Shown here in pieces: positions 21,931 through 51,242 of a stretch of 64,000 bases of DNA. The position numbers and the translations under genes are program-made. The stretch lies in IMG/VR virus record IMGVR_UViG_3300035208_003226, one strand, 5' to 3'. The notes under the pieces are model-generated. The model was not told the origin of the DNA. It did no database searches and saw only the letters and a list, made by a program, of their open reading frames with translations. The DNA comes from an uncultured virus (IMG/VR IMGVR_UViG_3300035208_003226). Its lineage: Duplodnaviria; Heunggongvirae; Uroviricota; Caudoviricetes. How positions within the stretch are numbered: position 1 is the first letter of the stretch; every line of letters begins with the position of its first letter.

Positions 21931-21931
21931 A

Positions 21932-33363: not shown

Positions 33364-33885
33364 TTAATATAATTTACTATATCCGTGAACAATATACGGA
33401 TTAAAAAAACTTGGATTAGTAGCATTTGTTACTAATCTAAAAAATATTACTAAATCTGAACCGAGATTTGTATTAAATCCTGTTGTATATACTCTATTAA
33501 TTGAGGTAGGTGCAGCATTTCTTATATGGTCAGTAACTATAGAACAATTATTTGGTTCGTGTGATAAACATATTTTTGTATTAGTATGTCCTGAATCAAT
33601 AGTTATATCTAAATTTCCTGAACCTGCTATTCCTGAAATACCTATACCAACAGAACCTGCACCTGGAGCTACATTATTATAAGCATATACATCTACCATT
33701 GCATAATTACCAATAAATGTTCCTCCTGGAATTACTACACTTCCAATCTCTCTAATATCAGTCGAACTTCCAGTATTAATTATTGAACCTGCAGCAAAAA
33801 AACTACTTAATTTTGAAACTTTATTTATTTCACTCGCATATAAAACATCTCCATCTATCTTAGGATATTCTCCTTCATTTGCCAT
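33364..33885 (-). CDS. Tail fibre/receptor-binding-like protein
   Basis: YPKIDGDVLYASEIN anchor-like N-terminus; last tail gene. Confidence 0.55.
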   Translation of the reverse strand: MANEGEYPKIDGDVLYASEINKVSKLSSFFAAGSIINTGSSTDIREIGSVVIPGGTFIGNYAMVDVYAYNNVAPGAGSVGIGISGIAGSGNLDITIDSGHTNTKICLSHEPNNCSIVTDHIRNAAPTSINRVYTTGFNTNLGSDLVIFFRLVTNATNPSFFNPYIVHGYSKLY

Positions 33886-33910
33886 TTTTATATCCTCCTT
33901 TCATTTTAAT

Positions 33911-34273
33911 TTAAAATATCTCCCATGTTTCTTGTATCCTTAATTCAGTTGTTCCATCAAATGTTAATGCGTTTGCCATTATGTTTCTACTCCATACACT
34001 ACCAGCAACACCCGTTCCACTTGATACCATTCCCCATTCTCTTAATTGGTTTCCTGATATTTCTACTGCATTCCAATCTCCAGTCCATGTAATTTTTAAC
34101 GGAACAGAACCGTTTGTTGATGTAACTGCTTGTCTATCCCAAGGATTATATAAATCTGTTTGTGTAACATATGCAGTTCCTGAACCCGAACCAAGTAAGA
34201 AATATGTTGGAACATCTACTGAACCACCTATTAACATGTAAGCCATTCTATTTTTTGTCCAATTTGATATCAT
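33911..34273 (-). CDS. Tail-tip/baseplate structural protein
   Basis: Position; LGSGSG..LREWG pattern, similar to 36572..37036. Confidence 0.6.
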   Translation of the reverse strand: MISNWTKNRMAYMLIGGSVDVPTYFLLGSGSGTAYVTQTDLYNPWDRQAVTSTNGSVPLKITWTGDWNAVEISGNQLREWGMVSSGTGVAGSVWSRNIMANALTFDGTTELRIQETWEIF

Positions 34274-36571
34274 TTAAAAATAACCTCCCGAATATTGTAA
34301 TATGAAATCTGATTTATATCCACCTAAACAATGAGTTGTATAACTTCCTAACAATCCAAGTGTAGGATGTCCAAGAATGAAACTACTTCCTATTGTTCGT
34401 GTCCACACTTCTATTCCACTTTGTCTAATACTAAAACTTCCTGTTGTAAATTTATATCTTGTAAGTAAATCTGTATCTGAAACACTTACACTTTGTAAAT
34501 TTTTAAGTTGCAATAATATATCTTTTAAAGTATCTGTAACATCTGGTATTTTTTTATTTACAACTACATCTAATACATTTCCTTTTAATTCTGTATTTTT
34601 ATTGAATGTGTAATTAACATCTAATATTTTATATTCTGTATTATTAATTCCATATATTGGAATGTCAACAATACACGTTTCTCCTGGAGTAAGAATATTG
34701 ACATCTTTCAATGCTAATCTTCCTTCTTTAATTGGGTCAGAATATAAATCTAATTCACTAAGTAACACCGATTCTGCTATTAATGGGTCTTTTATATTTG
34801 TATCTTGAATTATTTTTGTTCTTCTGCCATATTTATTTATGCTCGCATTATTTTCTCCAACTTTTATTATTGGCAAATCTCTCATATAACTTATAACAAC
34901 ACTATTTCCAGATGATGGTATATTATTTCCTGCAGTAGTTCCTGATGTAAATATAATTTGTTTTTCGTCATAATTTACTAAATACTTAACTTCGCTTCCT
35001 GGATTATAAGTCATTTGATAAATTCCTCCAGGTTGTATTATTGCACCACTAACACTAACAGAAGTATTATGAGGTTTATATAAAAGTGTAAATATACTTC
35101 CTCCAACAGGACTTCCTGCTTTTATAGTTTGTGAATAAGCATCTAAATATCTATCGCCATAAACCCATATATCGTTATAGATTGAATTTCTTTCTTCTTT
35201 GAAAGTAGTAGATAATATATTTGTTGAATTAAAAGTATAACCTGACGATACCATTTCTTCTTCTTTAAAATGTAAATCTTTATTTTCATCAACAAAAAAC
35301 ATATAATCACATTGTTCGGCTAATTGATTTATTGCATCAAATAAGGAAATTTGTTTAAATATAATTCTTGGAATAACTTTTCCATCATCAACATTATCTG
35401 TTGTTATATCATCACAATATTTACTTATGATATCTTTTATTATATCTCCTGCAAGTTCATTCTTATAACTTTCTGGTTCAACTGTTCTATCCATAAGTCG
35501 TGCAGAATAATCACGTCCAGATAATGTTAATGTTTCTTTTAACTCTTTTCCTTTTAAATCGATATTTTCTAATATCCCAGTAAATATTTTATATTTTGGA
35601 TATATAAATTTATCATAATAAATTACAACTTCATCACCAATAGTAAAGTCTTCCGATTTTGTTCCTTTATAATTATTTATTGTTGCAGTAAAGGTATTAG
35701 AATTGTTTGTTTCTCCTATTGTTTTTTTAACACTACAAGTATCAACAAGAGTATTTACTCCATTTATGTTTATTATAAATTTAAAATCCGAAATTGCTTT
35801 GTTTAATTCAAAGGTTTCTGTTGTTGTTATATCTTCAGTTATTTTTGATGCTGTAAAAGATTTTAATAAAAAGGTTTCATTTAATGTTATATTATCATCA
35901 TATGTTCCACTATACACAACGTTTTCAACATTATATACGCGTAAACTTGATGGATTTGTATTTGGAGAAGTAAAACTTCCTATTAATGTTGAACCTATAC
36001 CACTATAAATATAAATATGGTCTGTAGACGAACTAATATTAAGTAGATTATTAGTAAGTGGGTCTACATCAATTCCTTTTGTTGAAACATATGTTGTTAC
36101 AAAATCATCAGTAGAGGTAGATGATATTCCATTATAAAAATATATTGTATTATTAGGTGTATCTATAGCAATTAAATTTCCACTATTATCTATTGAAATA
36201 TGTGTTAATGCATTAGAGGGATAACTTAATGAAAAACTTCCTGTTAAAACAGTTGATATTCCAGAATGAACATATATATAATCTACTTGATTATCTGAAG
36301 TTATCATATTACCAGATAAGTCAAAAGTTATTCCTACAGGCCATGTATTTGGACTTGCAAAACTTCCTGTTATTGTAGAAGATATACCATTATAAATATA
36401 AATATGTGCAGTTGTTTGATTAGTAGTTACTAAATCACCATATGGTGATATACTTATTGAAGATGTATCATTACTTATATCAAAACTTCCTGTTAAAATA
36501 TTTGATATTCCTTTATGTGTATATATTCTACCACTACTATCATAACTAACTAAATCGCCATTATTTACCAT
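34274..36571 (-). CDS. Tail hub/baseplate protein with N-terminal beta-propeller-like repeats
   Basis: Five IY..GI.S...GSF-like repeats, then KIFTG, LSGRDY, FFVDENKDLHF hub motifs. Confidence 0.75.
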   Translation of the reverse strand: MVNNGDLVSYDSSGRIYTHKGISNILTGSFDISNDTSSISISPYGDLVTTNQTTAHIYIYNGISSTITGSFASPNTWPVGITFDLSGNMITSDNQVDYIYVHSGISTVLTGSFSLSYPSNALTHISIDNSGNLIAIDTPNNTIYFYNGISSTSTDDFVTTYVSTKGIDVDPLTNNLLNISSSTDHIYIYSGIGSTLIGSFTSPNTNPSSLRVYNVENVVYSGTYDDNITLNETFLLKSFTASKITEDITTTETFELNKAISDFKFIININGVNTLVDTCSVKKTIGETNNSNTFTATINNYKGTKSEDFTIGDEVVIYYDKFIYPKYKIFTGILENIDLKGKELKETLTLSGRDYSARLMDRTVEPESYKNELAGDIIKDIISKYCDDITTDNVDDGKVIPRIIFKQISLFDAINQLAEQCDYMFFVDENKDLHFKEEEMVSSGYTFNSTNILSTTFKEERNSIYNDIWVYGDRYLDAYSQTIKAGSPVGGSIFTLLYKPHNTSVSVSGAIIQPGGIYQMTYNPGSEVKYLVNYDEKQIIFTSGTTAGNNIPSSGNSVVISYMRDLPIIKVGENNASINKYGRRTKIIQDTNIKDPLIAESVLLSELDLYSDPIKEGRLALKDVNILTPGETCIVDIPIYGINNTEYKILDVNYTFNKNTELKGNVLDVVVNKKIPDVTDTLKDILLQLKNLQSVSVSDTDLLTRYKFTTGSFSIRQSGIEVWTRTIGSSFILGHPTLGLLGSYTTHCLGGYKSDFILQYSGGYF

Positions 36572-37036
36572 TTAACTAAAAGCAATCCTCCAATCTGCTA
36601 AAATTATATCTCCACTACCAACATTTATTGTGGCAAAACAAGTTCTTGCATACATACTACCCGTATCCAAACCACTGGCATTGAATAATCCTGCTTCGTT
36701 TAATCCTTTTGTTGTGTCAATTCCAAAACTACCAATCCATTGTGCAGTATCATTTGCTGTTGTAGTTGTCATTCTTTGTCCAGTAATACTTCCTAAACCA
36801 TATTTTAGATATTGACTTCCTAATACAGTATCTCCAGGCAATATTGTATCGCTACCAATTCCTAATGCCATCCAATCTACTCTTGAGCCAACATTCATAT
36901 CAGCAATTAAATGTCCTGCAATTTGAGATTTTCCGATTGTAAGAATTGTATTATGTATGTTTCTTGAATCTATAATCTCGCCATTTCTAAATTGTCTCAA
37001 TTCAAGATTTCCTTTAACATTTATTTTTTCATTCAT
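36572..37036 (-). CDS. Tail-tip/baseplate structural protein
   Basis: HNTILTIGK, MALGIG, NEAGLFN; follows the tape measure gene. Confidence 0.65.
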   Translation of the reverse strand: MNEKINVKGNLELRQFRNGEIIDSRNIHNTILTIGKSQIAGHLIADMNVGSRVDWMALGIGSDTILPGDTVLGSQYLKYGLGSITGQRMTTTTANDTAQWIGSFGIDTTKGLNEAGLFNASGLDTGSMYARTCFATINVGSGDIILADWRIAFS

Positions 37037-37067
37037 TTTACCTCCTGTTTTAATTTAATTATCATAA

Positions 37068-38672
37068 CTAATATATCGATATCTTTTCTTTTAATTTGCT
37101 TACAAGAGCATCTGCAACATCATCTGCATCAACGCCATAAATATTTCCTTCAATTATGATTGTTGTTCCTCTACCAAGTTCAGATGGGTTTTGTGTTGCA
37201 ATAAGATAATCGCTTGGACTTGTTGATATAATGTTTCCAGTTGGAGATATTACTGCATCCATTACAGATAAATTACTTACTGGTTTTACTGATGATTTTG
37301 AAGATGTTTTGGATGTTATTCCTTCAACTGCTCCTCCTATTTTTTCAAATCCTGTAGTAAAAAATTCTCTAACTTTATTTATTAATTGTGTAATCCAATC
37401 AACAACGCTTTTTACAACCTCTATTATTTTTGTAAAGACATTAATTAAGATTGTTAAGATAGGAATTATTATTTCTAATGCAGGTTTTAAACTTGCCATT
37501 ATACTATTTATTCCTAATTTTATGAATATTGCAATCAATTCAGACGCCATTTTTATTATTGGCGATAATGCTGTAATAATTGGCGATAATGCATTAAATA
37601 ATGGAACCAAAGCTTCTGCTAATATTTGTATGGTTGGTATTAATGGTTCAATTGCTACAAATAATGCATCAAATATAACAAATGCTAAATCCATAAGAGG
37701 TCCCATTAATGGTTGTAATGCTGTAAATAATTTCATAAATACTTCAAAAAGTTTTGTAATCATCTCACTTAATTTAGGAAGATATGGAATTAGTCCTTCT
37801 ACTATTGTTGTTGTGAACTCTATAAATAAAGGAATTAATGGTTGAATAGAAGGAAGAATATCGTTAGCAAAAATATCAAGTAATTCTTTTAATGGAGGAA
37901 GTAATGCCATACCTATTTCTCTTCCCATTAATGTTATTGTATCTTTCATATTCGATATCATACCATTAAATGTTAATGCTTGTTTTGCCATTAAATCTCC
38001 AAACCTTCCTCCTTCAGATGTCATATTCTTAAATGCATCTAAAACCATTTGTGTAGATATTTCTCCTTTAGAAATCATATCGGTTATATCTTGTTCAGAT
38101 ACTCCTAATTGGTTTGATAATTCTTTTAATAATGGAACTCCTGCTACTGCAAAATCTCTTAATTCTCTTCCTGTTAATTTACCTTGTGTTTGAACTTGCC
38201 CTAAATTTAATATAAGTCTTTCTAACCCTTCTTCTCCTAATCCTAATCCTGATGCTATGTCACCAACAGATTTTAATGTGGGAATAACATCCTCTGCTTC
38301 AAATCCTACAGCCATTAATTGTTTAGCAGATTTTTCAACACCTTGTATTGTAAAAGGTGTTCTCTTAGCAAAATTTGCTAATTCATTTAAAAATGAAGTT
38401 GCTTTTTCTGCACTTCCTAACATTGTTGTAAATGCAACTTTTGTTTGTTCAAAATCTCCTGCTAATTTAACAGAAGCAACTCCTACAGAAACCATTGCTG
38501 TTCCAACTGCTATCATTGCAGATGCTCCAATTTTTCCAATAGAAGTCATAATACCACCTAAAGAATTAAAACTTCTTGTAGCTTCAGAAATAGTTTTACT
38601 AAATTCGTCTATTGCTTTAATTGTTATTGCAATTGTTGCACCACTTGCAATTGAACTTAATAAAGAAGCCAT
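37068..38672 (-). CDS. Tail tape measure protein
   Basis: FTTMLGSAEKA, TPF, GKLTGRELR tape-measure domain; amphipathic repeats. Confidence 0.93.
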   Translation of the reverse strand: MASLLSSIASGATIAITIKAIDEFSKTISEATRSFNSLGGIMTSIGKIGASAMIAVGTAMVSVGVASVKLAGDFEQTKVAFTTMLGSAEKATSFLNELANFAKRTPFTIQGVEKSAKQLMAVGFEAEDVIPTLKSVGDIASGLGLGEEGLERLILNLGQVQTQGKLTGRELRDFAVAGVPLLKELSNQLGVSEQDITDMISKGEISTQMVLDAFKNMTSEGGRFGDLMAKQALTFNGMISNMKDTITLMGREIGMALLPPLKELLDIFANDILPSIQPLIPLFIEFTTTIVEGLIPYLPKLSEMITKLFEVFMKLFTALQPLMGPLMDLAFVIFDALFVAIEPLIPTIQILAEALVPLFNALSPIITALSPIIKMASELIAIFIKLGINSIMASLKPALEIIIPILTILINVFTKIIEVVKSVVDWITQLINKVREFFTTGFEKIGGAVEGITSKTSSKSSVKPVSNLSVMDAVISPTGNIISTSPSDYLIATQNPSELGRGTTIIIEGNIYGVDADDVADALVSKLKEKISIY

Positions 38673-38838
38673 TTATTTCTTCCTCATTTTATTTTTATTT
38701 GCTTTTTCCATCTCTTTATTATAATCTTTTATCATATTTGCAGAACAATTATAATCAAAAATTGTTAAACTTCTTACATAATCTAAAGTCCAACCAAAAA
38801 ACTTACATATATTTAACTCACTTTTTACTCTTTTTTTT
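38673..38838 (-). CDS. Tail assembly chaperone -1 frameshift extension (gpGT-like)
   Basis: A8 slippery tract at 38831-38838; -1 frame reads RVKSELNICKFFGWTLDYVRSL... and stops immediately before the tape measure ATG. Confidence 0.8.
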
Positions 38839-39088
38839 CGGTCGGATTGGTAAAATTTACCACATCAGTTTTCAATTCGTTTATTTCTGCAATACTTTTT
38901 TCTATTAACTGACCATCTTTAATACTTAAATCGGATATTTCTTCTTCTGTTAAGTTAGTTGAAAACTTAAACATTTTTAAAATACCTTCTTTTTTACTTC
39001 CATTTGTATCTATTTCTGATGCATCAATGTATTTCATTTCTTTTACTATCACTTCTTTTCCAGAACTTAATTTTATTGTTTTCTCCAT
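38825..39088 (-). CDS. Tail assembly chaperone (gpG-like)
   Basis: Between tail tube and tape measure genes; ends at the slippery site. Confidence 0.8.
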   Translation of the reverse strand: MEKTIKLSSGKEVIVKEMKYIDASEIDTNGSKKEGILKMFKFSTNLTEEEISDLSIKDGQLIEKSIAEINELKTDVVNFTNPTEKKE

Positions 39089-39211
39089 TTATTTAAAAAT
39101 TTCCAAAATTAAAAGTTTTATTAACCAAATACCAAATAATCCCAAACAACTTAAAAGAATATATGAAACTATTTTCTGAAATATTGTCAATTTCACTTTT
39201 TTATTTATCAT
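39089..39211 (-). CDS. Small TM protein (40 aa)
   Basis: Read by hand (MINKKVKLTIFQKIV...); TGAAAGGAGG RBS. Confidence 0.55.
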   Translation of the reverse strand: MINKKVKLTIFQKIVSYILLSCLGLFGIWLIKLLILEIFK

Positions 39212-39241
39212 TATAACCTCCTTTCATATTTACTACTATAA

Positions 39242-39400
39242 CTATCTATATTCATATGTTTTTGTTTTTCTCATTCTAAATAACCAATATAATAATCCTA
39301 TTGGAAAGCATACTAATAACCAAAATATACACCAAAACCAACTACCACTTCGTGTTACTTGTGTTTTAGTTATTATTAAACTTTTGTTTTTCTTTACCAT
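39242..39400 (-). CDS. Small TM protein (52 aa), moron-like
   Basis: Read by hand (...WFWCIFWLLVCFPIGLLYWLF...); own promoter at 39421-39443. Confidence 0.65.
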   Translation of the reverse strand: MVKKNKSLIITKTQVTRSGSWFWCIFWLLVCFPIGLLYWLFRMRKTKTYEYR

Positions 39401-39420
39401 ATTATTAATTATATCAATAG

Positions 39421-39443
39421 ATTTATAAACCTTTTGGTTTTGG
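39421..39443 (-). promoter_or_regulatory. Archaeal BRE-TATA promoter inside the tail operon
   Basis: CCAAAACCAAAAGGTTTATAAAT. Confidence 0.68.
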
Positions 39444-39461
39444 TTATTACTCTAAAGTTAC

Positions 39462-40430
39462 TTACCACGCATTATAACTTCCTATTGCGTCGTAAACATT
39501 AACATATACATTTGTTGGCATAATAGTGCACGTCTGTTCAGTTAATCCTTCAACTGGACTTGGAACTGACATATCAGTAATTCTACAACCACTCATAATA
39601 ATATAAGCACTTCCTGCTGTTGCTTTAATTTCAACCATACTATTGAACGCATTTCCTTGTATGTAGTATGTGTTATAAAGTGTGCTTGCATTATCACTAT
39701 CCATAAGGAAAGTTGCAGCTACTTCATAATCTCTATTTAAAGGTATAACAGTTTCAATTGTTCTACTTCCATTAAGAGGAAATCTACTTTCTAAATTATT
39801 ATTGATTGTCAAACTAAATTCTGTTGCATTTGTAAGTTTTGTTCCTGATGGTAATTGAACATTAATATCACTCCACATATAAGGTTTTGTAGTTCTTGCT
39901 GTTACGGTTGTTACTGTTCCTGATGAATATACAACGTTTTGTGCTTTATATCCTACTTCACAGCTTGCTATTTCTCCTTCTGCCATTGTTAGTTTTAAGC
40001 TATCAATCATGCAACCTTTGAAAGTTCTTATAAAATTGCTTCCTGTTGCTGCTGTTTTCTTTGCATCTTCAAGAGTAAAACTACTCAAACTTTGTGCTGG
40101 AACTGCATAATTAGCATCATCACTATCGCTTTCTCTTATTAAAACGCTTCCTGTTAATACCTGAGCACTTCCTATTGCAAATGCTAAAAACTTCCAATCT
40201 TGTGGATAATAAGTAAATGTTCCTTCATATTCTAATTTTCCATTTGTAAATAAACCAATGTTTCTACTAAAATTTCCTTGAAATCTAATTGGTTCAACTC
40301 CTGCTCCTTCTGTTGCAGAATGGTCTTGAACTAATCCAATCCATTGTCTTGTTCCACTTGCTACTGCATATGTTCCACTTTCAAATTGAAAATTTAACTG
40401 ATTACTATCACCAATATATTTATATCCCAT
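39462..40430 (-). CDS. Major tail tube protein
   Basis: ESGTY, GCMIDSLKL, SLTINNNLE; strong RBS; position. Confidence 0.82.
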   Translation of the reverse strand: MGYKYIGDSNQLNFQFESGTYAVASGTRQWIGLVQDHSATEGAGVEPIRFQGNFSRNIGLFTNGKLEYEGTFTYYPQDWKFLAFAIGSAQVLTGSVLIRESDSDDANYAVPAQSLSSFTLEDAKKTAATGSNFIRTFKGCMIDSLKLTMAEGEIASCEVGYKAQNVVYSSGTVTTVTARTTKPYMWSDINVQLPSGTKLTNATEFSLTINNNLESRFPLNGSRTIETVIPLNRDYEVAATFLMDSDNASTLYNTYYIQGNAFNSMVEIKATAGSAYIIMSGCRITDMSVPSPVEGLTEQTCTIMPTNVYVNVYDAIGSYNAW

Positions 40431-40445
40431 TAATTATTCCTCCTT

Positions 40446-40910
40446 TCATTCATTGATAAACATAAAATTTACTTCTATTACTTTGCTTTTAATTCCTGCT
40501 TCTCCAGGTTCATTAATATTAATTGCTGAATTTAATTTAAATCCATTAAGATTTGATGCAACCAATCCTGTTAATGAATCCAATTGATTATTTTTAAGAT
40601 AGTTATATACCTCATCAAATAATTTATCTCTCTCTACAACATTACGAGCCCATATTCTAATTTCCATTGTTATATCCATAACCGTTCCTTCACTACTCAT
40701 TCCTAATCTTTGTGGTTGTGAAATACCTCTATCAACAATTGTTATAATTGGATATTTAACTGCACGTTGAGGATATTCAGTCATAATAAACTTTTCGTTT
40801 CCTGTTCTTATTGTTGCGATTGGGTCGTTAATATTATTCAACAATTTATCACGTAACAATATAGATGTATCTGCTAAAAAAGTTGTTCCAGAAACGCTTG
40901 TTACTGTCAT
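40446..40910 (-). CDS. Tail terminator-like protein
   Basis: YPIITI, EIRIWAR; position. Confidence 0.65.
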   Translation of the reverse strand: MTVTSVSGTTFLADTSILLRDKLLNNINDPIATIRTGNEKFIMTEYPQRAVKYPIITIVDRGISQPQRLGMSSEGTVMDITMEIRIWARNVVERDKLFDEVYNYLKNNQLDSLTGLVASNLNGFKLNSAININEPGEAGIKSKVIEVNFMFINE

Positions 40911-41045
40911 TGTATCATAGCGAGGTCAGAAAACGCTGGTTGAAGAAAATCATAGTTATTAAGTAATTCATTCGCTCTTATATAGAAATTATTTTTCATT
41001 TTCTTGACCTCGCTTGGTTCTCTTTGGTTAAACTCGCTTGTTTAA
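40907..41045 (-). promoter_or_regulatory. Structured 5' leader with a 30-aa uORF
   Basis: Inverted repeat 40919-40935 / 40997-41014; uORF 40999..40907. Confidence 0.55.
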
Positions 41046-41064
41046 TTAATACATATTTATCGTT

Positions 41065-41103
41065 TTTTATTTAAATATGTATATATATAAATTATATAAT
41101 TAT
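41065..41103 (-). promoter_or_regulatory. Putative late promoter (ATTATATAAT plus TATTTAAATA)
   Basis: 39 bp identical to 47044-47082. Confidence 0.75.
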
Positions 41104-41480
41104 ATTTTAGAAATTTCTGCTTTTATAATCTCTTTTACTTTATTTTTATTCCTATCAGCAGTGTTACGAAAATGACTTCTCGGTGCCATCTTTGTTGTTC
41201 CATATTCTAAATCAGGAGCATATTCAACATTTGTTTCTACTGTTGCTGTATATGGTGCAGGAAAAATTGCTTTAACCGACCCCTTAAATCGTCCAGTATC
41301 AACACTTCGTGGTTCTGCTCTTTCACCATTAATACTAAATACTACTTCTCTTTGAACAAAATAACCAGCATTCTTTACTCCTTGTTCTGTTTGTTTAAGT
41401 TTTTCAGCATTAAAACTTTTCATTTTTCTTTGAAGTTCCTCTAATCCTTTAACTTCAATTATAATTCCTTTTGTTGCCAT
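41100..41480 (-). CDS. HK97 gp10-like tail completion protein
   Basis: VKGLEEL, VDTGRF, NVEYAPDLEYGTTKMAPR. Confidence 0.85.
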   Translation of the reverse strand: MATKGIIIEVKGLEELQRKMKSFNAEKLKQTEQGVKNAGYFVQREVVFSINGERAEPRSVDTGRFKGSVKAIFPAPYTATVETNVEYAPDLEYGTTKMAPRSHFRNTADRNKNKVKEIIKAEISKI

Positions 41481-41489
41481 AATAAAACC

Positions 41490-41816
41490 TTAGTTATAAT
41501 TTTCATAAACTTGAACTTGAAGATTGTGGTCTGATGGAAAAGTCATTTTACTTCCTGAATTTTGAAATTCAAACTCAGCCCAATATGTTCCAACACTTCC
41601 TGTATCTATACTTCCAGTCCATTGATATTCGACATTTCCTGTTGTGCTTCCAGTTATAACGCATATTCCACTCACATAAGATGAATAGTTTGTTAGGTGT
41701 GCCATATTAAACCATACACTACCATTAGACAAATCTATTGCTTCATCACTTGAATTATTTAAGGTTACTGAAAGTGCAGGTAATGTGTCATTTTTTTTAA
41801 TTTTAAATATATCCAT
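41490..41816 (-). CDS. BppU-like Ig-fold virion protein
   Basis: IKKNDTLP, GNVEYQW, GTYWAEFE, TFPS. Confidence 0.7.
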   Translation of the reverse strand: MDIFKIKKNDTLPALSVTLNNSSDEAIDLSNGSVWFNMAHLTNYSSYVSGICVITGSTTGNVEYQWTGSIDTGSVGTYWAEFEFQNSGSKMTFPSDHNLQVQVYENYN

Positions 41817-41818
41817 AT

Positions 41819-42391: not shown

Positions 42392-42392
42392 C

Positions 42393-42812
42393 TTATTCCC
42401 CCATTAACGAACCAGTTAAAAGAACTCTTAAATAAACTTTTTTCAGAACATCAACTTGATTAACTGTATATTTTATAACACCATCTGAAAGTATACTATA
42501 TTCTCCTGTAATTGGACTTCCTAAACCAACACGTAAAACGCCAGAAGTATTAACATCTCCTTGAATATAAAGTTTAGTATCATTTGTTAAAAGATTTCCT
42601 TGTTGTAACAATATAGCATCGTCACTTCCTCTACCTTGACTTATAGGTAATACAACCCCAGATGTCCAATAATCTGTTCCTGATTGTGTTAATTTAACAT
42701 CATCATCATATTCATTAATATTAAATTCATTAAAATAACGCATTCTAATTTGCTGTCCGTATTTTAATGCTTCAAGAACTCCATTAACGAAATCATCTGA
42801 ATTTGTTGTCAT
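42393..42812 (-). CDS. Head-closure (stopper)-like protein
   Basis: Position and size; YDDD, DTKLY. Confidence 0.5.
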   Translation of the reverse strand: MTTNSDDFVNGVLEALKYGQQIRMRYFNEFNINEYDDDVKLTQSGTDYWTSGVVLPISQGRGSDDAILLQQGNLLTNDTKLYIQGDVNTSGVLRVGLGSPITGEYSILSDGVIKYTVNQVDVLKKVYLRVLLTGSLMGE

Positions 42813-43069: not shown

Positions 43070-43436
43070 CCCAACATTGGTAGTAACTTATAACTTCACC
43101 ACCAGTATTTAATTGTTCAATGCCCCATTCTTTCCATTCTTTAGAAGTTCCTTGAGACATTCCTTTTGTAATTGACAACTCTCCAATTTTAACACTGCTT
43201 GTTCCTATGCCTTGTGCTTCCATAAGTTTGAGGACGTTGGCAATACTTAAACTTGTAATTCCAGGTTGATATACTTCTGGTATAGAAGATACACTAATTG
43301 TAACTCCTGTTAACGTTTGAGCAAAATAAACTTGGTTATCAACGATTGTCGTTAATAATCCTGATATTCCAACAGGAATATTACTAATCATCCCAGAAAC
43401 TATACTTCCTATTTGAACGTCAGTGAGTGTTGTCAT
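43059..43436 (-). CDS. Head-tail adaptor-like protein
   Basis: SVKIGELSI motif; position. Confidence 0.55.
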   Translation of the reverse strand: MTTLTDVQIGSIVSGMISNIPVGISGLLTTIVDNQVYFAQTLTGVTISVSSIPEVYQPGITSLSIANVLKLMEAQGIGTSSVKIGELSITKGMSQGTSKEWKEWGIEQLNTGGEVISYYQCWDER

Positions 43437-43461
43437 TTAAGATATTATAAATTAAATGGCA

Positions 43462-43656
43462 TTAAACTATGCTTCCTATTCTTCCTGTGCTATCACATCT
43501 TACAGGAATTACTGCTAATCCTGATAATGCACATAATAAAACTAATTGAACTGCTCCTTGTGCTTGAACATAAGTTCCACTTATATATATTGGACTATTT
43601 GAAGTATATCCACTTTGCGTTCCTGATGCATATATCGGTAATTCTGTTGCTCCCAT
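43462..43656 (-). CDS. Small SG-rich virion protein
   Basis: 64 aa in the structural operon. Confidence 0.6.
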   Translation of the reverse strand: MGATELPIYASGTQSGYTSNSPIYISGTYVQAQGAVQLVLLCALSGLAVIPVRCDSTGRIGSIV

Positions 43657-43665
43657 TTTTAAAAT

Positions 43666-43920
43666 TTAAACAGTTATTAATGCTGTCCATCCACTTCCAC
43701 CTACACCAAGAGTTATATCACCAATATAGAATATTCCATCAGAAACACTATAAGCAATATCGCTTCCAGTAACTGATGTTAGATAATTATTAGGACTAAA
43801 ATTTACAACTCTAAAAGTAGGACTAACAATTGCATAAGTTCCTGATACCATTATTGAATGTGGTAATCCAGGCACTAATCCTTGTCCCATTATACTTCCT
43901 GTCGTTACGCTATCTGCCAT
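43666..43920 (-). CDS. Small virion protein
   Basis: 84 aa, TGAAAGGAGG RBS. Confidence 0.65.
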   Translation of the reverse strand: MADSVTTGSIMGQGLVPGLPHSIMVSGTYAIVSPTFRVVNFSPNNYLTSVTGSDIAYSVSDGIFYIGDITLGVGGSGWTALITV

Positions 43921-43963
43921 TTATTTTTATATCCTCCTTTCATATTATTTTTTAAAATAATTT

Positions 43964-44485
43964 TTAAATTCCTACTGCTATCCAATCGGCTACTGTTCCT
44001 GATGGACCATATGCCCAACATCCAGATGCTCTTCTTAATCCACTTATGGAAAATCCTGTTCCACTTGTGTTACTTGCTACTGGTAATGACCAATCTCTTG
44101 CGCTTATAGTCATGAAATAATTTGCCGTTGAAAAACTTCCTGCTGAAGGAAATGCAATTAATCCTGAAGAACTATTACCAATTAAAACACTTCCAGCAAC
44201 TACTCTATATCCGAATAATTGTGTATCATTTTCAATTGCTACTGGAAAGTGCCTTCCTAATGTATCTGTTATACTTCCACCTGCTCTAAAGTTAGTTCCA
44301 CTAATTGTAGTTCCATATATATTTGTTCCGCTAATAGATGTTACACCAACAAGATTTGTTATTCTAATATTTGTAAAACTACCTGTTGTTCCATAAATAT
44401 TACTTCCACTAATTGTTTCTGTAAAACTTGCTTGATTTACTTCTTCAAAACCCATTCCATCAACTGTGCTTACATTGCTTGCCAT
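43964..44485 (-). CDS. Head fibre/decoration-like protein
   Basis: ISG(T/S)N(I/F) repeats; C-terminal DWIAVG. Confidence 0.65.
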   Translation of the reverse strand: MASNVSTVDGMGFEEVNQASFTETISGSNIYGTTGSFTNIRITNLVGVTSISGTNIYGTTISGTNFRAGGSITDTLGRHFPVAIENDTQLFGYRVVAGSVLIGNSSSGLIAFPSAGSFSTANYFMTISARDWSLPVASNTSGTGFSISGLRRASGCWAYGPSGTVADWIAVGI

Positions 44486-44539
44486 TTCTTTTTTTCCTAT
44501 TTAATTGCGTCAATTTAAAGTTTGACTTCTTGTAAATAT

Positions 44540-44560
44540 TAAAAAAATAAAAATAAAAAT
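44540..44560 (-). terminator. T-rich terminator after the capsid gene
   Basis: Oligo-T runs on the minus strand. Confidence 0.5.
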
Positions 44561-44583
44561 TTTATTCTTCCTCTACAACCTAT

Positions 44584-45447
44584 TTACGAAGTTGTAATCT
44601 TTGCTATTGCATCTGCCCTAAGGTGTCTAATCTTTAGTCTTTGTGTAATTGCTGCTGCATCCATATCGTATAGAGGTAATGTTAAATTCTCTACACTAAC
44701 TGGTCTTTTTTCAGCGATTACATAAGCTTGTGTTCTATCAGTAACGTATGCATACTTACTATAAGTTGTGCTTGGTGCTGCATTTGTTGAAAATTTAAGA
44801 ACATTTAATCCGTAGATTGTTCCTAAAAATCCTCTTGCAAGCATGTCTGTATTACCAACTTTATTAGCTTCTACAAAAGTATCAATATTTCTTAAATCAT
44901 TCAAGACTTCCATACCAACAAACAAAGTTGTTGCTGAATAGTCTGCATCATCAAGATACTGAATTGCTCTTGTAATGTTTGCAATTGTTATTGCTGCTCC
45001 ACCTGCTACTGTATTAGTTGCATTATCCAATGCATCTGAAAGTATTAACTTCGTTTCATTTTCTGCAAATCTCTTACCGAAAGTTTGTAGATTATGTTGA
45101 AGTAAGTTCCATTTGCAATCTTCCAACATTTCTCTTGTAATTCTAACTGAAACTCCGTATTTTACTGGTTTCAAATTAAAACTTGTGTAAGAAGTTTGGT
45201 CTATTGGAATTTCTGCACCTTCAGCTACGATTCTAATTATTCCTTGATTTACATTTACTAAATCAACATCAATACTTGAACCTGGAATATCTCCTGAGCC
45301 AAAATAAATAGCGCATTCACTTCTTGGAATTAAAACTTTATCAACTTCTTCAATCAAGGTGTTATAAATCTGCCTTGGAAGTAAAAGTTGACCTTCAGTT
45401 CCCATTCCAGTCTGTAATAATTCTTTAACTGCTTTATATTCTGTCAT
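44584..45447 (-). CDS. Major capsid protein (HK97 fold)
   Basis: VAEGAEIP, KYG..ITREM, GTIYGLNV, DAIAKIT. Confidence 0.9.
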   Translation of the reverse strand: MTEYKAVKELLQTGMGTEGQLLLPRQIYNTLIEEVDKVLIPRSECAIYFGSGDIPGSSIDVDLVNVNQGIIRIVAEGAEIPIDQTSYTSFNLKPVKYGVSVRITREMLEDCKWNLLQHNLQTFGKRFAENETKLILSDALDNATNTVAGGAAITIANITRAIQYLDDADYSATTLFVGMEVLNDLRNIDTFVEANKVGNTDMLARGFLGTIYGLNVLKFSTNAAPSTTYSKYAYVTDRTQAYVIAEKRPVSVENLTLPLYDMDAAAITQRLKIRHLRADAIAKITTS

Positions 45448-45448
45448 T

Positions 45449-45931
45449 TTAAATATTTACTGAAACAACACAGAATTGTCCAAGTCCTCCATCTGCTGAT
45501 GTTAAAGCTGTTGCTTTTGTTGGATATACGAATTTAGTTGGGTCCATTGCTGTTGACGAACCTGCTGCATAAACTATTCCTGCACTTCCAGGCCATAATC
45601 CTTGTCCTGCTAATACAAGCGAACCAATAAATCCACTACCTGCTGGCATTAAAAATGTTCCTCTTGATGCTACTGTTCCATATGTTCCTGATGCAATATC
45701 TGTAATTGCTAATCCAATAACTAATGAACCAATAACTGTTGAAACTGTATATCCTTCAATATCACTTGAAGTATAAGAACTGCTATCTGAACCAACTGCA
45801 CCTAATGCACTTGAACCATTTACCCAGTATCCTCCTGATATATTTTCTCTTGCCTTAATAGTAAATGTTCTTGGTGTTCCACCATCGAATATTCCTACTG
45901 CTCCATTTGGGTTTCTTTGACTTACTGCCAT
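45449..45931 (-). CDS. Capsid cement/decoration protein
   Basis: IGLAITDIASG; between protease and capsid; strong RBS. Confidence 0.7.
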   Translation of the reverse strand: MAVSQRNPNGAVGIFDGGTPRTFTIKARENISGGYWVNGSSALGAVGSDSSSYTSSDIEGYTVSTVIGSLVIGLAITDIASGTYGTVASRGTFLMPAGSGFIGSLVLAGQGLWPGSAGIVYAAGSSTAMDPTKFVYPTKATALTSADGGLGQFCVVSVNI

Positions 45932-46030
45932 TTCTTTTTATCCTCCTTTCAATTATTAATATTCTCACAAAATTTAATTTTATGAAATATAATTTTATTC
46001 TTATTCATCTTTCCTCTTTTGTTCTCTAAT

Positions 46031-47017
46031 TTATCTTACTAATCTTTTTAAGTTAGGATTTTTGCTAAAATCACCATATAGAGATGCTTTATTACCAGCA
46101 CTTTCAACTACAATATCACTTGCAACTGATTTTTCAACTACTTCTGCTGTTATCACTCCTTTGGTTTCATCTAATTTCTTGACACTTTCTTCAGCTTTAA
46201 TTTTTTCTTGTGCTTTTTTCATTTCTGAAAAAGAAGAAACAATTAATTCTTTTAAGCTTTCAACATCTTTCTGTAATTTTTCAACTACTTCAGACTTTTG
46301 TTCAATACTCTCAGATTTAGCAACTTCTGTTACGTCTTCTGCCATCTTTTCCTCCTTATTATTTAATTGAGTTTGAACATTTTTATCCTCTACATTCTTT
46401 ACTTCATCTTTCACTTCATCTTTTTTATCTTCTACTTCGTCTTTCACTTCATCCTTACTATCTAATTCAGCCATTTCTTTTAAATGAAAATTACTATCAA
46501 ATGCTTGTGCTAAATTTGCATGACTATCTCCTGGAACAGCAACCAAACTTAATTCTAATCCTCGAATACCAACTGCTTTTTTACTTCCATCTGTTTCCTC
46601 AATTAAATCATCTACTTTTGCTCCAATACTTACACTTTGTATTCTGCCATCTTTAATCATCTCACGAATTTGTTTATCCATAATCTTTCCTTCAAAATCT
46701 ACTCTTCGTGCAACCGGATTCCAATTTACTTTTTCTGTTGTTCTTCCAACAATATTCTTAACTTCATTTTTATGGTCAAGTAATATCGGAACATTTCTCC
46801 ATGTCGACGCACCTTTCTCTAATTCTTCTGCAATATATTTAACATTATTCAAAGTTGTTGTTTCGTTAATTGCAACACCTCTTATAAAAAATTCGTCATT
46901 AACCTCATCAAAAACTTTTTCTTCAATAGGAACAAAAAATTCAAGAAGTCTCCAATCTTTTGCTTTTTGTTTTATTGTTTTTATTTCACTCATCACCACA
47001 CTTTTTTCTTCTGACAT
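46031..47017 (-). CDS. Prohead protease with C-terminal scaffold
   Basis: PILLDH, SVSIG, ELSLVAVPG; acidic coiled-coil tail. Confidence 0.9.
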   Translation of the reverse strand: MSEEKSVVMSEIKTIKQKAKDWRLLEFFVPIEEKVFDEVNDEFFIRGVAINETTTLNNVKYIAEELEKGASTWRNVPILLDHKNEVKNIVGRTTEKVNWNPVARRVDFEGKIMDKQIREMIKDGRIQSVSIGAKVDDLIEETDGSKKAVGIRGLELSLVAVPGDSHANLAQAFDSNFHLKEMAELDSKDEVKDEVEDKKDEVKDEVKNVEDKNVQTQLNNKEEKMAEDVTEVAKSESIEQKSEVVEKLQKDVESLKELIVSSFSEMKKAQEKIKAEESVKKLDETKGVITAEVVEKSVASDIVVESAGNKASLYGDFSKNPNLKRLVR

Positions 47018-47043
47018 ATCATATATATTATATCATTGAATTA

Positions 47044-47082
47044 TTTTATTTAAATATGTATATATATAAATTATATAATTAT
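47044..47082 (-). promoter_or_regulatory. Putative late promoter
   Basis: Identical to 41065-41103; about 30 nt upstream of the protease ATG. Confidence 0.75.
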
Positions 47083-47085
47083 GAT

Positions 47086-49293
47086 TCATCCACTAATTCC
47101 ATTTATATATTTCCAACTATTAATCCATTCCCAAACATATTTTCCGTAAGTAGAATTAACCGAAGTATCTTCTTCGCCAGTTCCAATTCCATTAATTTCT
47201 TTTATGCCATCGTAACACCATATACTAATTGCAACATCTGTCATATTACAACCATTAATTGTTAAATCGTAAGGTAAAGTATTTGTAGTTGTTCCAATAC
47301 CGTCGACAAACTTTCCATTACTATATCCCCATACTTCTTCACCAAACGTTTTATTTATAGGAACATCTACACATCTATCATCACTAATCCCATCTATAAA
47401 CTTCCCACCTGAATATACCCAAACACTTCTTACAACTTCTGTTATATTACATACTACTGCTGTGCTGTTAATTGTATAACTCTGAATATTAGAAACATTA
47501 TAATTCGTTAGAGTTCCATTTCCCCATGAATACCATTTGTAAGCATAAACTCCTCCAGAAGAAAAACTGTAGCTTGCATTAAATGTTGTAGCACTTCCTG
47601 AAACGTTTGAGGCAGTTGTATTAACACCATTAATTTCTAATAAAACAGTCCCATTTGTATTCAAAACTGTTACATTGAATATTCCTGTTCCTGTATCAAC
47701 TAATGTTCCATTGTTATCCCAGTAAGAAGAAAACTGTGGATATTCTGTATCTGTAACTCCTGCATTATATTGGTCTGCTCCAACATCCCATGTTCCTGTT
47801 CTTGTTTCTCTATCTATATCATAATTAAATTTAAGATAAGGGTCTGCACTTAAATCTGTTCCATTTCCTCTTGCACAAGTGTCAGTAGAACTTAAATGAA
47901 AGTTTGAAGCATTCTCATTAAAAAAGGTTACATTACACCAAATTGGATTTAATCCCGGAGGCGTATCATGACTTGCAAGATTATTTGTTGAATCTGTAGT
48001 GTTGTAACTTGAATGATAACATTCTCCTGAAGCATTCTTACAAACATTATTCTTCAAAACTAAAACTACCGCAGTAACCCCATTTGTTCCTCTAAATCCA
48101 TAATTTCCTCCATAAGCTGTATTACTATAAACAAATGCTTTAGAAGCATTAAGCGTTCTAATTCCTGTGCTTCCTGATGCCTTAGAAAGATTGTATATTA
48201 AATTATTATAAATATAATAATTACCGTTTGGTCTTACCCCATTTATTCCATACTGATAATAAGCATAATTTGCGTGTCCAACTACAATATTATTGCTAAT
48301 ATTTATAAGATTATTATCTGCTAATGTTACATCAGAATTAATACCTGTTATTCCTGGTCTTGTTATGTTTGAAGTTCCAACTTGTAATCCATCTATAATA
48401 ACATAATCTTCTGCTATTGTTACAACTGGACCTGAAACATTATTGTCATTATATACTCTATAAGCAGTTTGGCTAAATGTTCCATTATGTCTTGCTTCTC
48501 CTTCAGTATATATTTTAACATAATCTGTTTCAGTAGTAGTCCATCCACTAACTGATATTCTTCCATTATCTACATTTGTCCAAATTCCACTAATATTTGC
48601 AATACAAGGACCTGTTCCAGTTAAGTTTGCTTGTTGAGCAGCTTCCCAAGTAGATAATTGTGAATAGTTACAACCAGATTCACAGATAGTAAACATTCCT
48701 GAACTTCCATGTAATTTCATATCTTTTGGTCTATTTTCCCAGTCTACTAAAACTATTTTTTCAGAAATATTTGTTAAATATTTTATTATTGGAGCATGAT
48801 AAGATTTGTCATTATAAGGAATATTTTTTAAATTATTTAATTCTTTTTTGTCTAAAAATGATTCAAGAGGAAGTCTATATTTTCTTTCAGTTAATATTTC
48901 ATAACCGATAACTTTCTTTTCATTGGTTATAGGTGCAGAATAATTGTATTCGGGTTCAAGCCAAGAAGCATTCCATTCTGAAATTGGAATTTTAATAAGA
49001 GCAAAACTCATTGGGTCTAATTCTAAATTTCCCCATTTATATCCTTCTGGCTCTGCTACAATAATATAACCTTGTTTTGAACTTCCTGCTCGTTCTTCTT
49101 TTGTTGTTTCTAATGTTTTAGCAATTTCATTTCCTTTCAATAAATTAGTATCTGAAGTTTTTACAAGAAGTTCCATATATTTTGGACTATCATTATTAAA
49201 AAGATATATTCCCGAAGTTGTTACTGAAAGCACTGCTAATGAAACTAAACCTAATATTATCTTTTCTTTTTTACTTAACTTCTTTTTTATCAT
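47086..49293 (-). CDS. Membrane-anchored, N-sequon-rich surface protein (beta-helix, Ig-like domain, C-terminal repeats)
   Basis: N-terminal TM; about 30 N-x-S/T; NNLIY repeats; WDVGADQY; four (V/I)W.(Y/W)...K...GI repeats. Confidence 0.75.
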   Translation of the reverse strand: MIKKKLSKKEKIILGLVSLAVLSVTTSGIYLFNNDSPKYMELLVKTSDTNLLKGNEIAKTLETTKEERAGSSKQGYIIVAEPEGYKWGNLELDPMSFALIKIPISEWNASWLEPEYNYSAPITNEKKVIGYEILTERKYRLPLESFLDKKELNNLKNIPYNDKSYHAPIIKYLTNISEKIVLVDWENRPKDMKLHGSSGMFTICESGCNYSQLSTWEAAQQANLTGTGPCIANISGIWTNVDNGRISVSGWTTTETDYVKIYTEGEARHNGTFSQTAYRVYNDNNVSGPVVTIAEDYVIIDGLQVGTSNITRPGITGINSDVTLADNNLINISNNIVVGHANYAYYQYGINGVRPNGNYYIYNNLIYNLSKASGSTGIRTLNASKAFVYSNTAYGGNYGFRGTNGVTAVVLVLKNNVCKNASGECYHSSYNTTDSTNNLASHDTPPGLNPIWCNVTFFNENASNFHLSSTDTCARGNGTDLSADPYLKFNYDIDRETRTGTWDVGADQYNAGVTDTEYPQFSSYWDNNGTLVDTGTGIFNVTVLNTNGTVLLEINGVNTTASNVSGSATTFNASYSFSSGGVYAYKWYSWGNGTLTNYNVSNIQSYTINSTAVVCNITEVVRSVWVYSGGKFIDGISDDRCVDVPINKTFGEEVWGYSNGKFVDGIGTTTNTLPYDLTINGCNMTDVAISIWCYDGIKEINGIGTGEEDTSVNSTYGKYVWEWINSWKYINGISG

Positions 49294-51242
49294 TAAATAT
49301 ATCCTATTCTTAATGGATAATTACCACTAACTTGTGCTCCAGAAATTATAAAAACAATATCTCCACTTGCTAAAAATGGTGTCATATAAGACAATCTTCC
49401 TATTCTTGGTAAATTTGATAAAATTGTATATCCTTCGCTATCTCTTACTTCAAAATTATAAGAGCTTCCTGCACTTCCAATAATACTTATCCAATTTATT
49501 TCATTATTTAATGTGACTACATGAGAACCAATATAAATATTTGCTGCTCCACCAGATACAATTAAACTTCCTGTATATGTTAATGGAGTTTTATTTACAT
49601 GAAACGGAGATACTCCTTGCATTATACTTCCAACTCCAATTGGATTATAAGTTTGGATACTTCCACCTTTAATCCACTGTTCGCTTCCAGTAGTTAAACT
49701 TACTTCAACATTTGGTATCGACCAAATACTTCCTGCTATTTGAACTGTATTAGTAACATCTATAAAAGATGTTCCAGAATACAAATGTATCGAGCCACCT
49801 TTTATCCATTGTTCAGAACCAGCATTTGCTGTAACTGATGGCATACTCCAAATTGACCCTGCTGTTTGAACAACATTTGCAACATCAATATATGAAGTTC
49901 CCGAATAAAGATGAATACTTCCACCCTTAATATAAGTCTCACTACCAGTGCTTACACTTATGTCTGGCATTGACCATATTGAACCTGCCATTTGCCATGG
50001 TGTTGTAATTTGAACTACTTGTGCTCTAACACTTCCTATCATATCAGAAAAATAAGTTCCACTAACTCCAACAATTGGCATATTAACAATTGACCCTGCT
50101 ACTCTATTTGGAATATCTATATAACTTGTTCCTGAATATAAATGTATAGAACCTCCTTTAATCCAGCTTTCACTTCCTGCAGACACACTAACACTTGGCA
50201 TACTCCATATAGAACCAGCAACTTGAGAAACGCCATCTAAACTTCCACCTTTAATATAAAACTCGCTTCCTACAGAAACATTAATAGAAGGCATATAAAC
50301 AATGCTTCCTGCAACCATATTATAAACCTCAACACTTCCTGCTTTAATATAACTCTCACTTCCAACACTTACAGAAATACTTGGCATAGACCAAATACTA
50401 CCTACACAACCAGTCCAACTACCAATAGTTTCTGGACTTCTTATTCCTACTGTTCCACTAACAAGAACATTGCCACTAACAACCCAAGGATTTGTAATTT
50501 GAACATTCTGACTTCTAACTGAACCAATCATATTTTGGAAATATGTTCCTGATACTCCAACAACATCTGGTAAATTTACTATACTTCCTGCAACTCTATT
50601 ACTAACTTCAATAATTCCACTAACGCCATATACATCGCCTTGATAAGCTTTACTTCCTTCATATAAATTTGTAACTACAACTGATGAACCTAAATCGCCA
50701 AAGTTCATAATATAATTTTCTGAACCAGTAGATACATTAATCGCAGGCATTGCTGTTATTGTAACACTACCCAATATATTACTAAATGCTGTTCCTGAAA
50801 CTCCTACATTTCCGTCAATAGTCTGTATCGAATAACTACCAATAGTCGAAGGACTATCAATTGTAATGTTTGGCATATTAACAATACTACCTGCTATACG
50901 AGTTGTTATATCAACTATTCCTGATACACCAAATCTTTCTCCTTGCCAAACTTTACTACCAAGATATTGATTTGTAGCATAAATACTTCCTACTCCATAA
51001 ACACTTATTGACCCACCCTTTATATAACTCTCCGAACCTGCACTAACACTAACTGCTGGCATAGAAACAATTGAGCCAGCTACTATATCATAAACAGAAA
51101 CCGAACCACCTTTAATATAAGTTTCACTTCCTGCTGCAATTGATACACTACCAATAGTAACTCCAGCAATATTAATACTACCGTCAGAATTAACAATCAT
51201 TCCATATTGCGTTCCGCTTGCACTTATAATCTGCTCTGCCAT
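49293..51242 (-). CDS. GS-rich repetitive virion fibre-like protein
   Basis: About 8 copies of AGSIWSMP.VSV..GSE.(Y/W)IKGGSI. Confidence 0.75.
   Translation of the reverse strand: MAEQIISASGTQYGMIVNSDGSINIAGVTIGSVSIAAGSETYIKGGSVSVYDIVAGSIVSMPAVSVSAGSESYIKGGSISVYGVGSIYATNQYLGSKVWQGERFGVSGIVDITTRIAGSIVNMPNITIDSPSTIGSYSIQTIDGNVGVSGTAFSNILGSVTITAMPAINVSTGSENYIMNFGDLGSSVVVTNLYEGSKAYQGDVYGVSGIIEVSNRVAGSIVNLPDVVGVSGTYFQNMIGSVRSQNVQITNPWVVSGNVLVSGTVGIRSPETIGSWTGCVGSIWSMPSISVSVGSESYIKAGSVEVYNMVAGSIVYMPSINVSVGSEFYIKGGSLDGVSQVAGSIWSMPSVSVSAGSESWIKGGSIHLYSGTSYIDIPNRVAGSIVNMPIVGVSGTYFSDMIGSVRAQVVQITTPWQMAGSIWSMPDISVSTGSETYIKGGSIHLYSGTSYIDVANVVQTAGSIWSMPSVTANAGSEQWIKGGSIHLYSGTSFIDVTNTVQIAGSIWSIPNVEVSLTTGSEQWIKGGSIQTYNPIGVGSIMQGVSPFHVNKTPLTYTGSLIVSGGAANIYIGSHVVTLNNEINWISIIGSAGSSYNFEVRDSEGYTILSNLPRIGRLSYMTPFLASGDIVFIISGAQVSGNYPLRIGYI

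Follow-up and report, generated by a model that had tools for sequence, protein, structure and literature searches.

Why neighbouring glycine and serine residues (Gly-Ser, GS, or Ser-Gly, SG) recur in the particle proteins of an uncultured tailed virus, and whether they could be acceptors for the sugar-transferring enzymes of the same genome, is the question raised by positions 33364–51242 of IMG/VR record IMGVR_UViG_3300035208_003226 (64,000 nucleotides, referred to as the window). The original prediction for this locus, made from hand counts of GS/SG sites, was that the virus has placed a Ser(Gly) glycosylation site across its outer proteins and builds a glycan-coated virion. A recount agrees with those numbers within one site, and overlapping GSG words explain most of the gaps. 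With per-protein shuffles as the reference, 203 GS+SG pairs are present in 33364–51242 where 110.2 are expected (observed/expected ratio, O/E, 1.84); the remaining window has 92 versus 89.0 expected. The excess persists when the 649-residue repeat protein is left out (145 versus 82.0, O/E 1.77) and when the baseplate hub is removed as well (121 versus 70.3, O/E 1.72). Nine of the 22 proteins in this region reach p ≤ 0.011, compared with 3 of 146 (4 of 146 when repeated with 3000 shuffles) in seven structural modules used as controls (HHTV-2, HCTV-2, lambda, SPP1, Che8, Bacillus phage BpsS-36 and TP901-1), whose GS+SG ratios lie between 0.99 and 1.42. The non-structural proteins of the same genome have an O/E of 1.0.

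The excess is specific for direct adjacency of the two residues. In the structural proteins, with the repeat protein excluded, GS (O/E 1.84) and SG (1.72) are the highest of all 400 dipeptides apart from the Met-Ala of protein starts. The cause is not that small or loop-favouring residues cluster in general, since GG is depleted (O/E 0.53), SS is neutral, and GN, NG, GD and DG range from 0.7 to 1.1. When residues were shuffled locally, in segments of 6, 10, 20 or 40 residues, the O/E was still 1.49–1.72 and the observed count was reached in none of 500 shuffles. The per-protein and local shuffles rule out Gly/Ser richness and local composition, and the claim that the excess goes beyond Gly/Ser content thus survives the corrections for composition, local composition and repeats. 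The spaced words G-x-S (0.96) and S-x-G (0.99) are neutral, and Gly/Ser pairs with one to five residues in between occur at expectation. The top tripeptides of the structural proteins are SGT (18 versus 3.9 expected) and TGS (15 versus 3.9), and the word [ST]-G-[ST] is 2.86-fold enriched. Other trivial sources were rejected as well: low GC content, by the lack of an excess in TP901-1, in SPP1 and in the window's own enzymes; avoidance of deamidation-prone Asn-Gly, by an NG ratio of 1.08; and recent paralogy among the enriched proteins, by BLAST matches no better than E=0.009. In that last respect the description of these proteins as unrelated needs one correction, as 33911–34273 and 36572–37036, though no other two, share PHROG 5417.

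The sites are unevenly distributed over the particle proteins (Table 1). The tape measure, protease/scaffold, portal and capsid proteins were said to have few, and the recount gives 3, 1, 3 and 3, respectively (expected for the protease/scaffold 1.95 and for the portal 4.05). The idea of a mark on all exposed proteins does not extend to the major capsid protein, which is not enriched. Some of the counts involve internal repeats: residues 1–210 of the hub comprise about five repeats of about 45 residues, each closing with a Thr/Ile-Gly-Ser-Phe word and resembling propeller blades, and each unit of the 649-residue protein carries two or three Gly-Ser words. The sites in the hub N-terminus, in 43964–44485 and in the 649-residue protein are not independent for this reason. 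The 64-, 84- and 173-residue proteins adjoining the capsid gene are candidate head decoration or connector proteins. For the 139-residue protein no usable fold was obtained (mean predicted local distance difference test, pLDDT, 42.5); a PDB profile search returned chance matches, and the Atlas no named family above a lead.

Table 1. Features of the window, with GS/SG sites observed versus expected from shuffles. Strands are + and -; sizes are in residues.
Feature	Coordinates	Strand	Size	Assignment and remarks	GS/SG sites
Replication genes	3.3-31.5 kb stretch	+		AAA ATPase, PCNA, family B polymerase, PD-(D/E)XK nuclease, three DNA methyltransferases	
Glycan cluster, 16 kb	15460-31481	+		downstream of the replication genes	
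GT4	15460-16632	+		Pfam/NCBIfam	
Epimerase/dehydratase	16629	+			
GT2 fused to methyltransferase	17495-18850	+		Pfam/NCBIfam	
Nucleotidyltransferase	19062-19502	+			
Split PDH-E1 alpha/beta-like thiamine enzyme	19803/20468	+			
Epimerase/dehydratase	22303	+			
B12-binding radical-SAM enzyme	23511	+			
GT2, marginal fifth glycosyltransferase	24967-25662			E=0.064	
Reductase	26479	+			
B12-binding radical-SAM enzyme	27372	+			
GT2	28673-29512	+		Pfam/NCBIfam	
NDP-sugar dehydrogenase	29446	+			
GT4	30354-31481	+		Pfam/NCBIfam	
Particle genes	56 to 33 kb	-		usual order	
Last tail-module protein	33364-33885	-	173		9 vs 4.0
Tail-tip protein	33911-34273	-	120	PHROG 5417	9 vs 2.4
Baseplate hub	34274-36571	-	765	phrog_177	24 vs 11.7
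Distal-tail position	36572-37036	-	154	PHROG 5417; after tape measure	9 vs 2.9
Tape measure	37068-38672	-		depleted	3 vs 6.7
Tail tube	39462-40430	-	322	double-domain type; PF18906, phrog_290	11 vs 4.7 (p=0.004)
108-residue protein	41490-41816	-	108	BppU-like in the original prediction	7 vs 2.1
Head-tail region protein	42393-42812	-	139	unknown fold	6
Three small Gly/Ser-rich proteins	43462-44485	-	64, 84, 173	adjoining capsid gene	5 (vs 2.05, 43462-43656), 5, 13 (vs 7.0, p=0.011, 43964-44485)
Major capsid	44584-45447	-		HK97 type; not enriched	3 vs 1.7
Cement-like	45449-45931	-	160	marginal PF09956 (E=0.0065)	10 vs 6.8 (p=0.11, not significant alone)
Repeat protein	49293-51242	-	649	about 10 units of about 30-40 residues	58 vs 28.2

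Relatives were drawn from 153 IMG/VR loci and 5 loci of a genome collection. The pooled ortholog counts come from the first 84 and include duplicates (overlapping loci on one contig); the later alignments were de-duplicated. The excess recurs in the pooled orthologs of the tube (O/E 2.10), the 139-residue protein (2.45), the hub (2.16) and the families of 33911–34273 (2.83) and 41490–41816 (3.11), and on the head side in the family of 43964–44485 (1.94) and the cement-like protein (1.84). The orthologs of the capsid (1.13), protease (0.92), tape measure (0.89), portal (0.78) and tail completion (0.60) proteins are not enriched. For the tube, the excess persists in every identity band down to 30% (O/E 1.9–2.4). 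The profile scan for more distant tube relatives used patterns that contain the Ser-Gly word and is thus blind to relatives without it. The excess arises from positionally fixed sites: among 48 distinct tube sequences, 75% of all pairs are concentrated in 10 alignment columns, each occupied by a pair in half or more of the sequences, and the pairs outside these columns amount to about 2.9 per sequence, below the chance expectation of about 5. In a 20-sequence tube alignment reaching down to 30% identity, pairs account for 9 of the 22 invariant columns (Ser18-Gly19, Gly26, Gly87, Ser170, Gly196, Gly221 and Ser280-Gly281), and in the 139-residue family 8 of the 18 invariant columns belong to GS/SG pairs.

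The conservation is specific for serine. Over nine enriched families, it is 0.60 for Gly-adjacent Ser (n=86) and 0.61 for the Gly, versus 0.22 for other Ser (n=125); Gly-adjacent Ser is the better conserved in all nine (Mann-Whitney p=1e-12). Adjacency to Gly brings no such gain for Asp, Ala, Lys, Val, Ile or Leu, a slight one for Thr (0.42 versus 0.33), and a loss for Asn (0.15 versus 0.33). The most frequent substitute for a Gly-adjacent Ser is Thr, at 4.2%. Both AGY and TCN codons are used among relatives at 22 of 26 conserved Ser sites, which argues for long-standing selection for Ser itself. This switching, together with the at least nine codon pairs with which the pairs are spelled, rules out a DNA-level motif. 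Judging from these alignments, selection in this virus family acts on the adjacent Ser-Gly or Gly-Ser as a unit, in proteins of the outer tail and baseplate and in small proteins associated with the head.

The setting of the sites can best be followed in the tail tube, whose model has a pLDDT of 81.5. Among PDB entries it best matches the P74-26 and T5 tubes, both double-domain (8ed0 at a Foldseek E of 7.9e-15, with a template modelling score of 0.70; the T5 and DT57C tubes at 1e-11 to 2e-8), which places it in the double-domain type, with two tube domains per chain. The candidate sites are scattered over residues 18–318. In the model, 6 of the 11 pair serines lie in coil, 4 within two residues of a strand end and 1 (Ser280) in mid-strand; sites are found at two-residue turns (94–95 and 273–274) and at strand ends (88 and 170).

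As for the enzymes, the glycan cluster holds four glycosyltransferases supported by Pfam/NCBIfam; the fifth that had been counted is marginal. None of the four has a membrane or hydrophobic segment, and they are predicted to be soluble. No Pfam match to a flippase, polymerase, lipid-carrier transferase or oligosaccharyltransferase was found among the 33 plus-strand and flanking proteins scanned. The cluster also contains three or four cupins, and its small nucleotidyltransferase resembles glycerol-3-phosphate cytidylyltransferase (E=1e-12) as well as heptose-1-phosphate adenylyltransferase (E=1e-15), each match falling below the curated cut-off. The set of PDH-E1-like enzyme, cupins, B12 radical-SAM enzymes and GT2-methyltransferase fusion points to an unusual branched or C-methylated sugar. 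Sugar genes make up about a quarter of the genome, so the glycan function is clearly important to the virus. Matches to GT4 (PF00534) and GT2 (PF00535) are present in all seven related contigs that measure 41.5 kb or more, among them the only two records at or above 90% completeness (rated 93% and 100%); among 14 shorter contigs (24–49% complete) PF00534 is found in 4 and PF00535 in 5, a frequent lack of matches being expected of fragments. In five long relatives a GT2 (about 270–320 residues) and a GT4 (about 360–390 residues) lie close together, and in at least one relative the pair is a few kb past the tail genes. No contig that bears one of the best 120 homologue clusters of the GT4 at 30354 is longer than 65.8 kb, in keeping with what is apparently a virus-only family. 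The proposed glycan machinery is thus borne out in the four firm enzymes and in the retention of both families by relatives. Two HNH endonuclease genes (12891–13499 and 27053–27421) lie inside or adjoining the cluster. Immediately upstream of the first GT4, 14783–15460 (+) codes for a transglutaminase-fold, LapG-like cysteine protease that is kept in two relatives at 52% identity.

Viruses without such enzymes provide a comparison. The genomes of HHTV-2, HCTV-2 and Bacillus phage BpsS-36 have no match to PF00534 or PF00535, and their tube homologues show no excess (5, 7 and 4 pairs versus 5.9, 5.2 and 4.6 expected). In alignments that are of low identity and uncertain, these three tubes often retain the Gly, and the Ser positions mostly read Ala, Asn, Lys, Gln or Thr. 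The tube Ser pattern therefore appears to be lineage-specific.

We rank first, with a rough probability of 0.4, that the pair serines are acceptors for glycosylation or a related modification. They would be O-modified on the virion proteins, in the host cytoplasm, by the family's own soluble glycosyltransferases, the adjoining Gly giving the enzyme room to reach a Ser held out from the fold by a short turn. Selection specific for Ser, its restriction to a subset of virion proteins, the lineage-specific tube pattern and the conserved soluble transferases make serine modification the most economical single reading. The proposal of a virus-glycosylated virion is carried by the observed excess and its specificity for adjacency, by the Ser-specific conservation and by the conserved, apparently virus-only enzyme set, to which an encounter of enzyme and serine and the attachment of a sugar would have to be added; this last step is what we infer. 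A fuller picture is more tentative still: a widespread uncultured family of archaeal-type tailed viruses, possibly infecting ultrasmall DPANN archaea, in which a Gly-adjacent Ser on a tight turn would direct the virus's own soluble glycosyltransferases, so that tube, baseplate and head-decoration proteins would be coated in the cytoplasm with an unusual sugar from the 16-kb pathway.

Several observations weigh against modification of the serines. Only one pair, Gly56-Ser57 (in 44 of 47 sequences), is conserved in the capsid protein, which forms the largest exposed surface. In the tube model, the invariant Ser280-Gly281-Cys282 is embedded in a long strand. The residues flanking the sites, chiefly Ile, Val, Thr, Ala and Leu, are hydrophobic on average (mean hydropathy +0.63 versus –0.09 overall), more so than those flanking NG/DG-type pairs (+0.36), which makes the typical site a very short turn that joins two strands of hydrophobic character. 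The control modules themselves have a mild [ST]-G-[ST] excess of 1.47-fold, so the window stands about twofold above a non-zero baseline. The association with glycosyltransferases rests on a single lineage, as all sufficiently long relatives carry the enzymes. Che8, whose genome does match these families with its GT2 genes, shows no GS/SG excess (O/E 1.15). While the lack of an excess in the three tubes described above agrees with the expectation that enrichment follows the enzymes, two proteins of the same haloviruses do not: gp53 of HHTV-2 (L101, 25933–26925; 14 sites versus 4.9, p=0.0003) and its counterpart gp46 of HCTV-2 (L106, 21804–22799; 16 versus 7.9), the last tail-module proteins of their respective viruses, are as GS-rich as the proteins of the window. 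Since gp53 is weakly homologous to 36572–37036 (E=2.6e-4), the richness of PHROG 5417 needs no viral glycosyltransferase of the PF00534 or PF00535 families.

Alternatively, the pairs may be an unmodified structural idiom that the virus family has fixed in its beta-rich outer proteins: the Gly would allow the backbone angle needed where hydrophobic strands are linked by a tight turn or bulge, and the Ser would cap that turn or bulge through a side-chain hydrogen bond, with the glycan cluster serving some other target. The hydrophobic context, the mid-strand site, the unmarked capsid, the GS-richness of the two halovirus proteins and the mild excess already seen in ordinary phages make this almost as likely as modification. 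It would also suit the two-residue turns and strand ends of the tube model, the sub-chance number of tube pairs outside the fixed columns, which indicates no turnover maintaining a density, and the fact that the depleted virion proteins are the alpha-helical ones (tape measure and scaffold). Turns, however, normally accept Ser, Thr, Asn and Asp, and here the gain in conservation is confined to Ser, Gly-adjacent Asn is the least conserved class, and NG, GN, DG and GD are not enriched. Moreover, the Ser is dispensed with in homologous tubes outside the family, the beta-rich tail proteins of lambda, SPP1, TP901-1 and BpsS-36 show no excess, and neither does the beta-rich 735-residue protein of the same module (O/E 1.36).

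The cluster could instead remodel the host surface, whether to serve adhesion, to exclude superinfecting viruses or to mask receptors, and occur together with the pairs by coincidence. An excerpt of PMC11310336 interprets the glycosyltransferases encoded by viruses of ultrasmall archaea and bacteria as aids to modifying the host surface, and two of the five genome-collection matches are binned with Woesearchaeota or Pacearchaeota. The particle module also encodes the 735-residue protein at 47086–49293 (-), which carries a membrane segment at its N-terminus, shows 31 N-X-S/T sequons versus 14.3 expected, as the sole protein of the window with such an excess, and resembles an exported, N-glycosylated protein. 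We nevertheless regard a role at the host surface as somewhat less likely, given that no lipid-carrier transferase, flippase or polymerase match was found among the scanned window proteins and that the glycosyltransferases are predicted to be soluble. It leaves the Ser-specific conservation unexplained and is thus tenable only alongside a structural role of the pairs. That conservation would equally fit another Ser-directed chemistry (for example phospho-linked glycerol phosphate) or contacts with an assembly factor, without sugar chains, and the sub-cut-off glycerol-3-phosphate cytidylyltransferase match of 19062–19502 would suit the former. This is improbable, as the Pfam scan of 56 of the window's 89 proteins recognised no kinase or phosphotransferase and nothing links the 19062–19502 enzyme to a protein.

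Returning to glycosylation of the serines, the proposal can be compared with known systems. In eukaryotic proteoglycans, the xylosyltransferase acceptor is a Ser followed by Gly with acidic flanks. The analogy drawn in the original prediction fails on this context: the flanks here are hydrophobic rather than acidic, both orders of the pair are enriched, and the Pfam scan of the cluster proteins revealed no xylosyltransferase-like enzyme. Chloroviruses and mimivirus, giant viruses that infect eukaryotes, use self-encoded sets of sugar-nucleotide enzymes and transferases to glycosylate the capsid and fibre proteins of their own particles independently of host membrane machinery, in the chloroviruses at atypical N-linked sites of the major capsid protein. 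The virus described here likewise carries such a set, particle glycosylation being proposed only, and its capsid protein is not GS/SG-enriched. A precedent for the chemistry is that of TibC and AAH, cytoplasmic enzymes which, as described in part of PMC4358343, heptosylate many serines of TibA and AIDA-I in turns rich in Gly and Ser, the Ser being presented "by loop protrusion"; such Ser chemistry therefore exists. The soluble enzymes are a shared feature. By sequence and modelled secondary structure the candidate serines of the tube would suit such turns, and the 649-residue repeat protein is similar in look. Unlike that system, the cluster has GT2 and GT4 enzymes only, with no heptosyltransferase-type family match in the Pfam and NCBIfam scans, and it would act on virion proteins with many different folds, not on a single adhesin. 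In Che8-type mycobacteriophages, glycans are reported at the C-termini of capsid and tube subunits (excerpt of PMC12619734). These too are tailed viruses with their own glycosyltransferases, and the targets proposed here would similarly be capsid-associated and tube proteins of a particle assembled in the cytoplasm. The candidate sites differ in lying throughout the folds rather than at the C-termini, with some 10 in each tube subunit, and in leaving the capsid nearly free.

If the serines accept sugars, the pair would represent the first virion glycosylation sequon to be defined for any prokaryotic virus, and the first case in an archaeal-type virus. It would provide a sequence rule by which glycan-coated particles can be predicted straight from viral genomes, and would give access to soluble enzymes able to glycosylate folded proteins at a tag of only two residues. 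Should the pairs have a structural role alone, they caution against reading a Ser-Gly excess in virion proteins as a sequon without chemistry.

The window as a whole is the genome or near-genome of a tailed virus with a GC content of 29%. On the head side the gene order is terminase, portal fused to a Mu-F domain, 649-residue repeat protein, 735-residue membrane-anchored protein, protease/scaffold, cement-like protein and HK97-type capsid; downstream of the capsid gene follow small proteins, neck, tail tube, tape measure, hub and two small tail-tip proteins. Its closest cultured relatives are haloarchaeal tailed viruses, with 37% identity of the terminase to that of HGTV-1 and about 25% identity of the tail tube to the HHTV-2 and HCTV-2 homologues. 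Between the glycan cluster and the tail genes, the product of 32791–33330 (+) is a small protein whose N-terminus holds a membrane helix and which contains about 16 Gly-X-Y triplets like those of collagen. Several palindromes are scarce in positions 1–64000 (GATC 1 versus 160 expected, GTAC 2 versus 83, CTAG 0 versus 74), with CATG, GGCC and CGCG likewise low, which looks like restriction avoidance; the Gly-Ser pair is never encoded as GGATCN in the window. The three DNA methyltransferases lie at 7010–10184. The five capsid relatives from the genome collection (L154–L158) are on short contigs that look entirely viral; the three not binned with Woesearchaeota or Pacearchaeota are in bacterial bins, and the binning of relatives gives a weak hint of DPANN hosts. 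In one of these relatives (L156, 2117–3514), the terminase match is broken across two adjoining reading frames.

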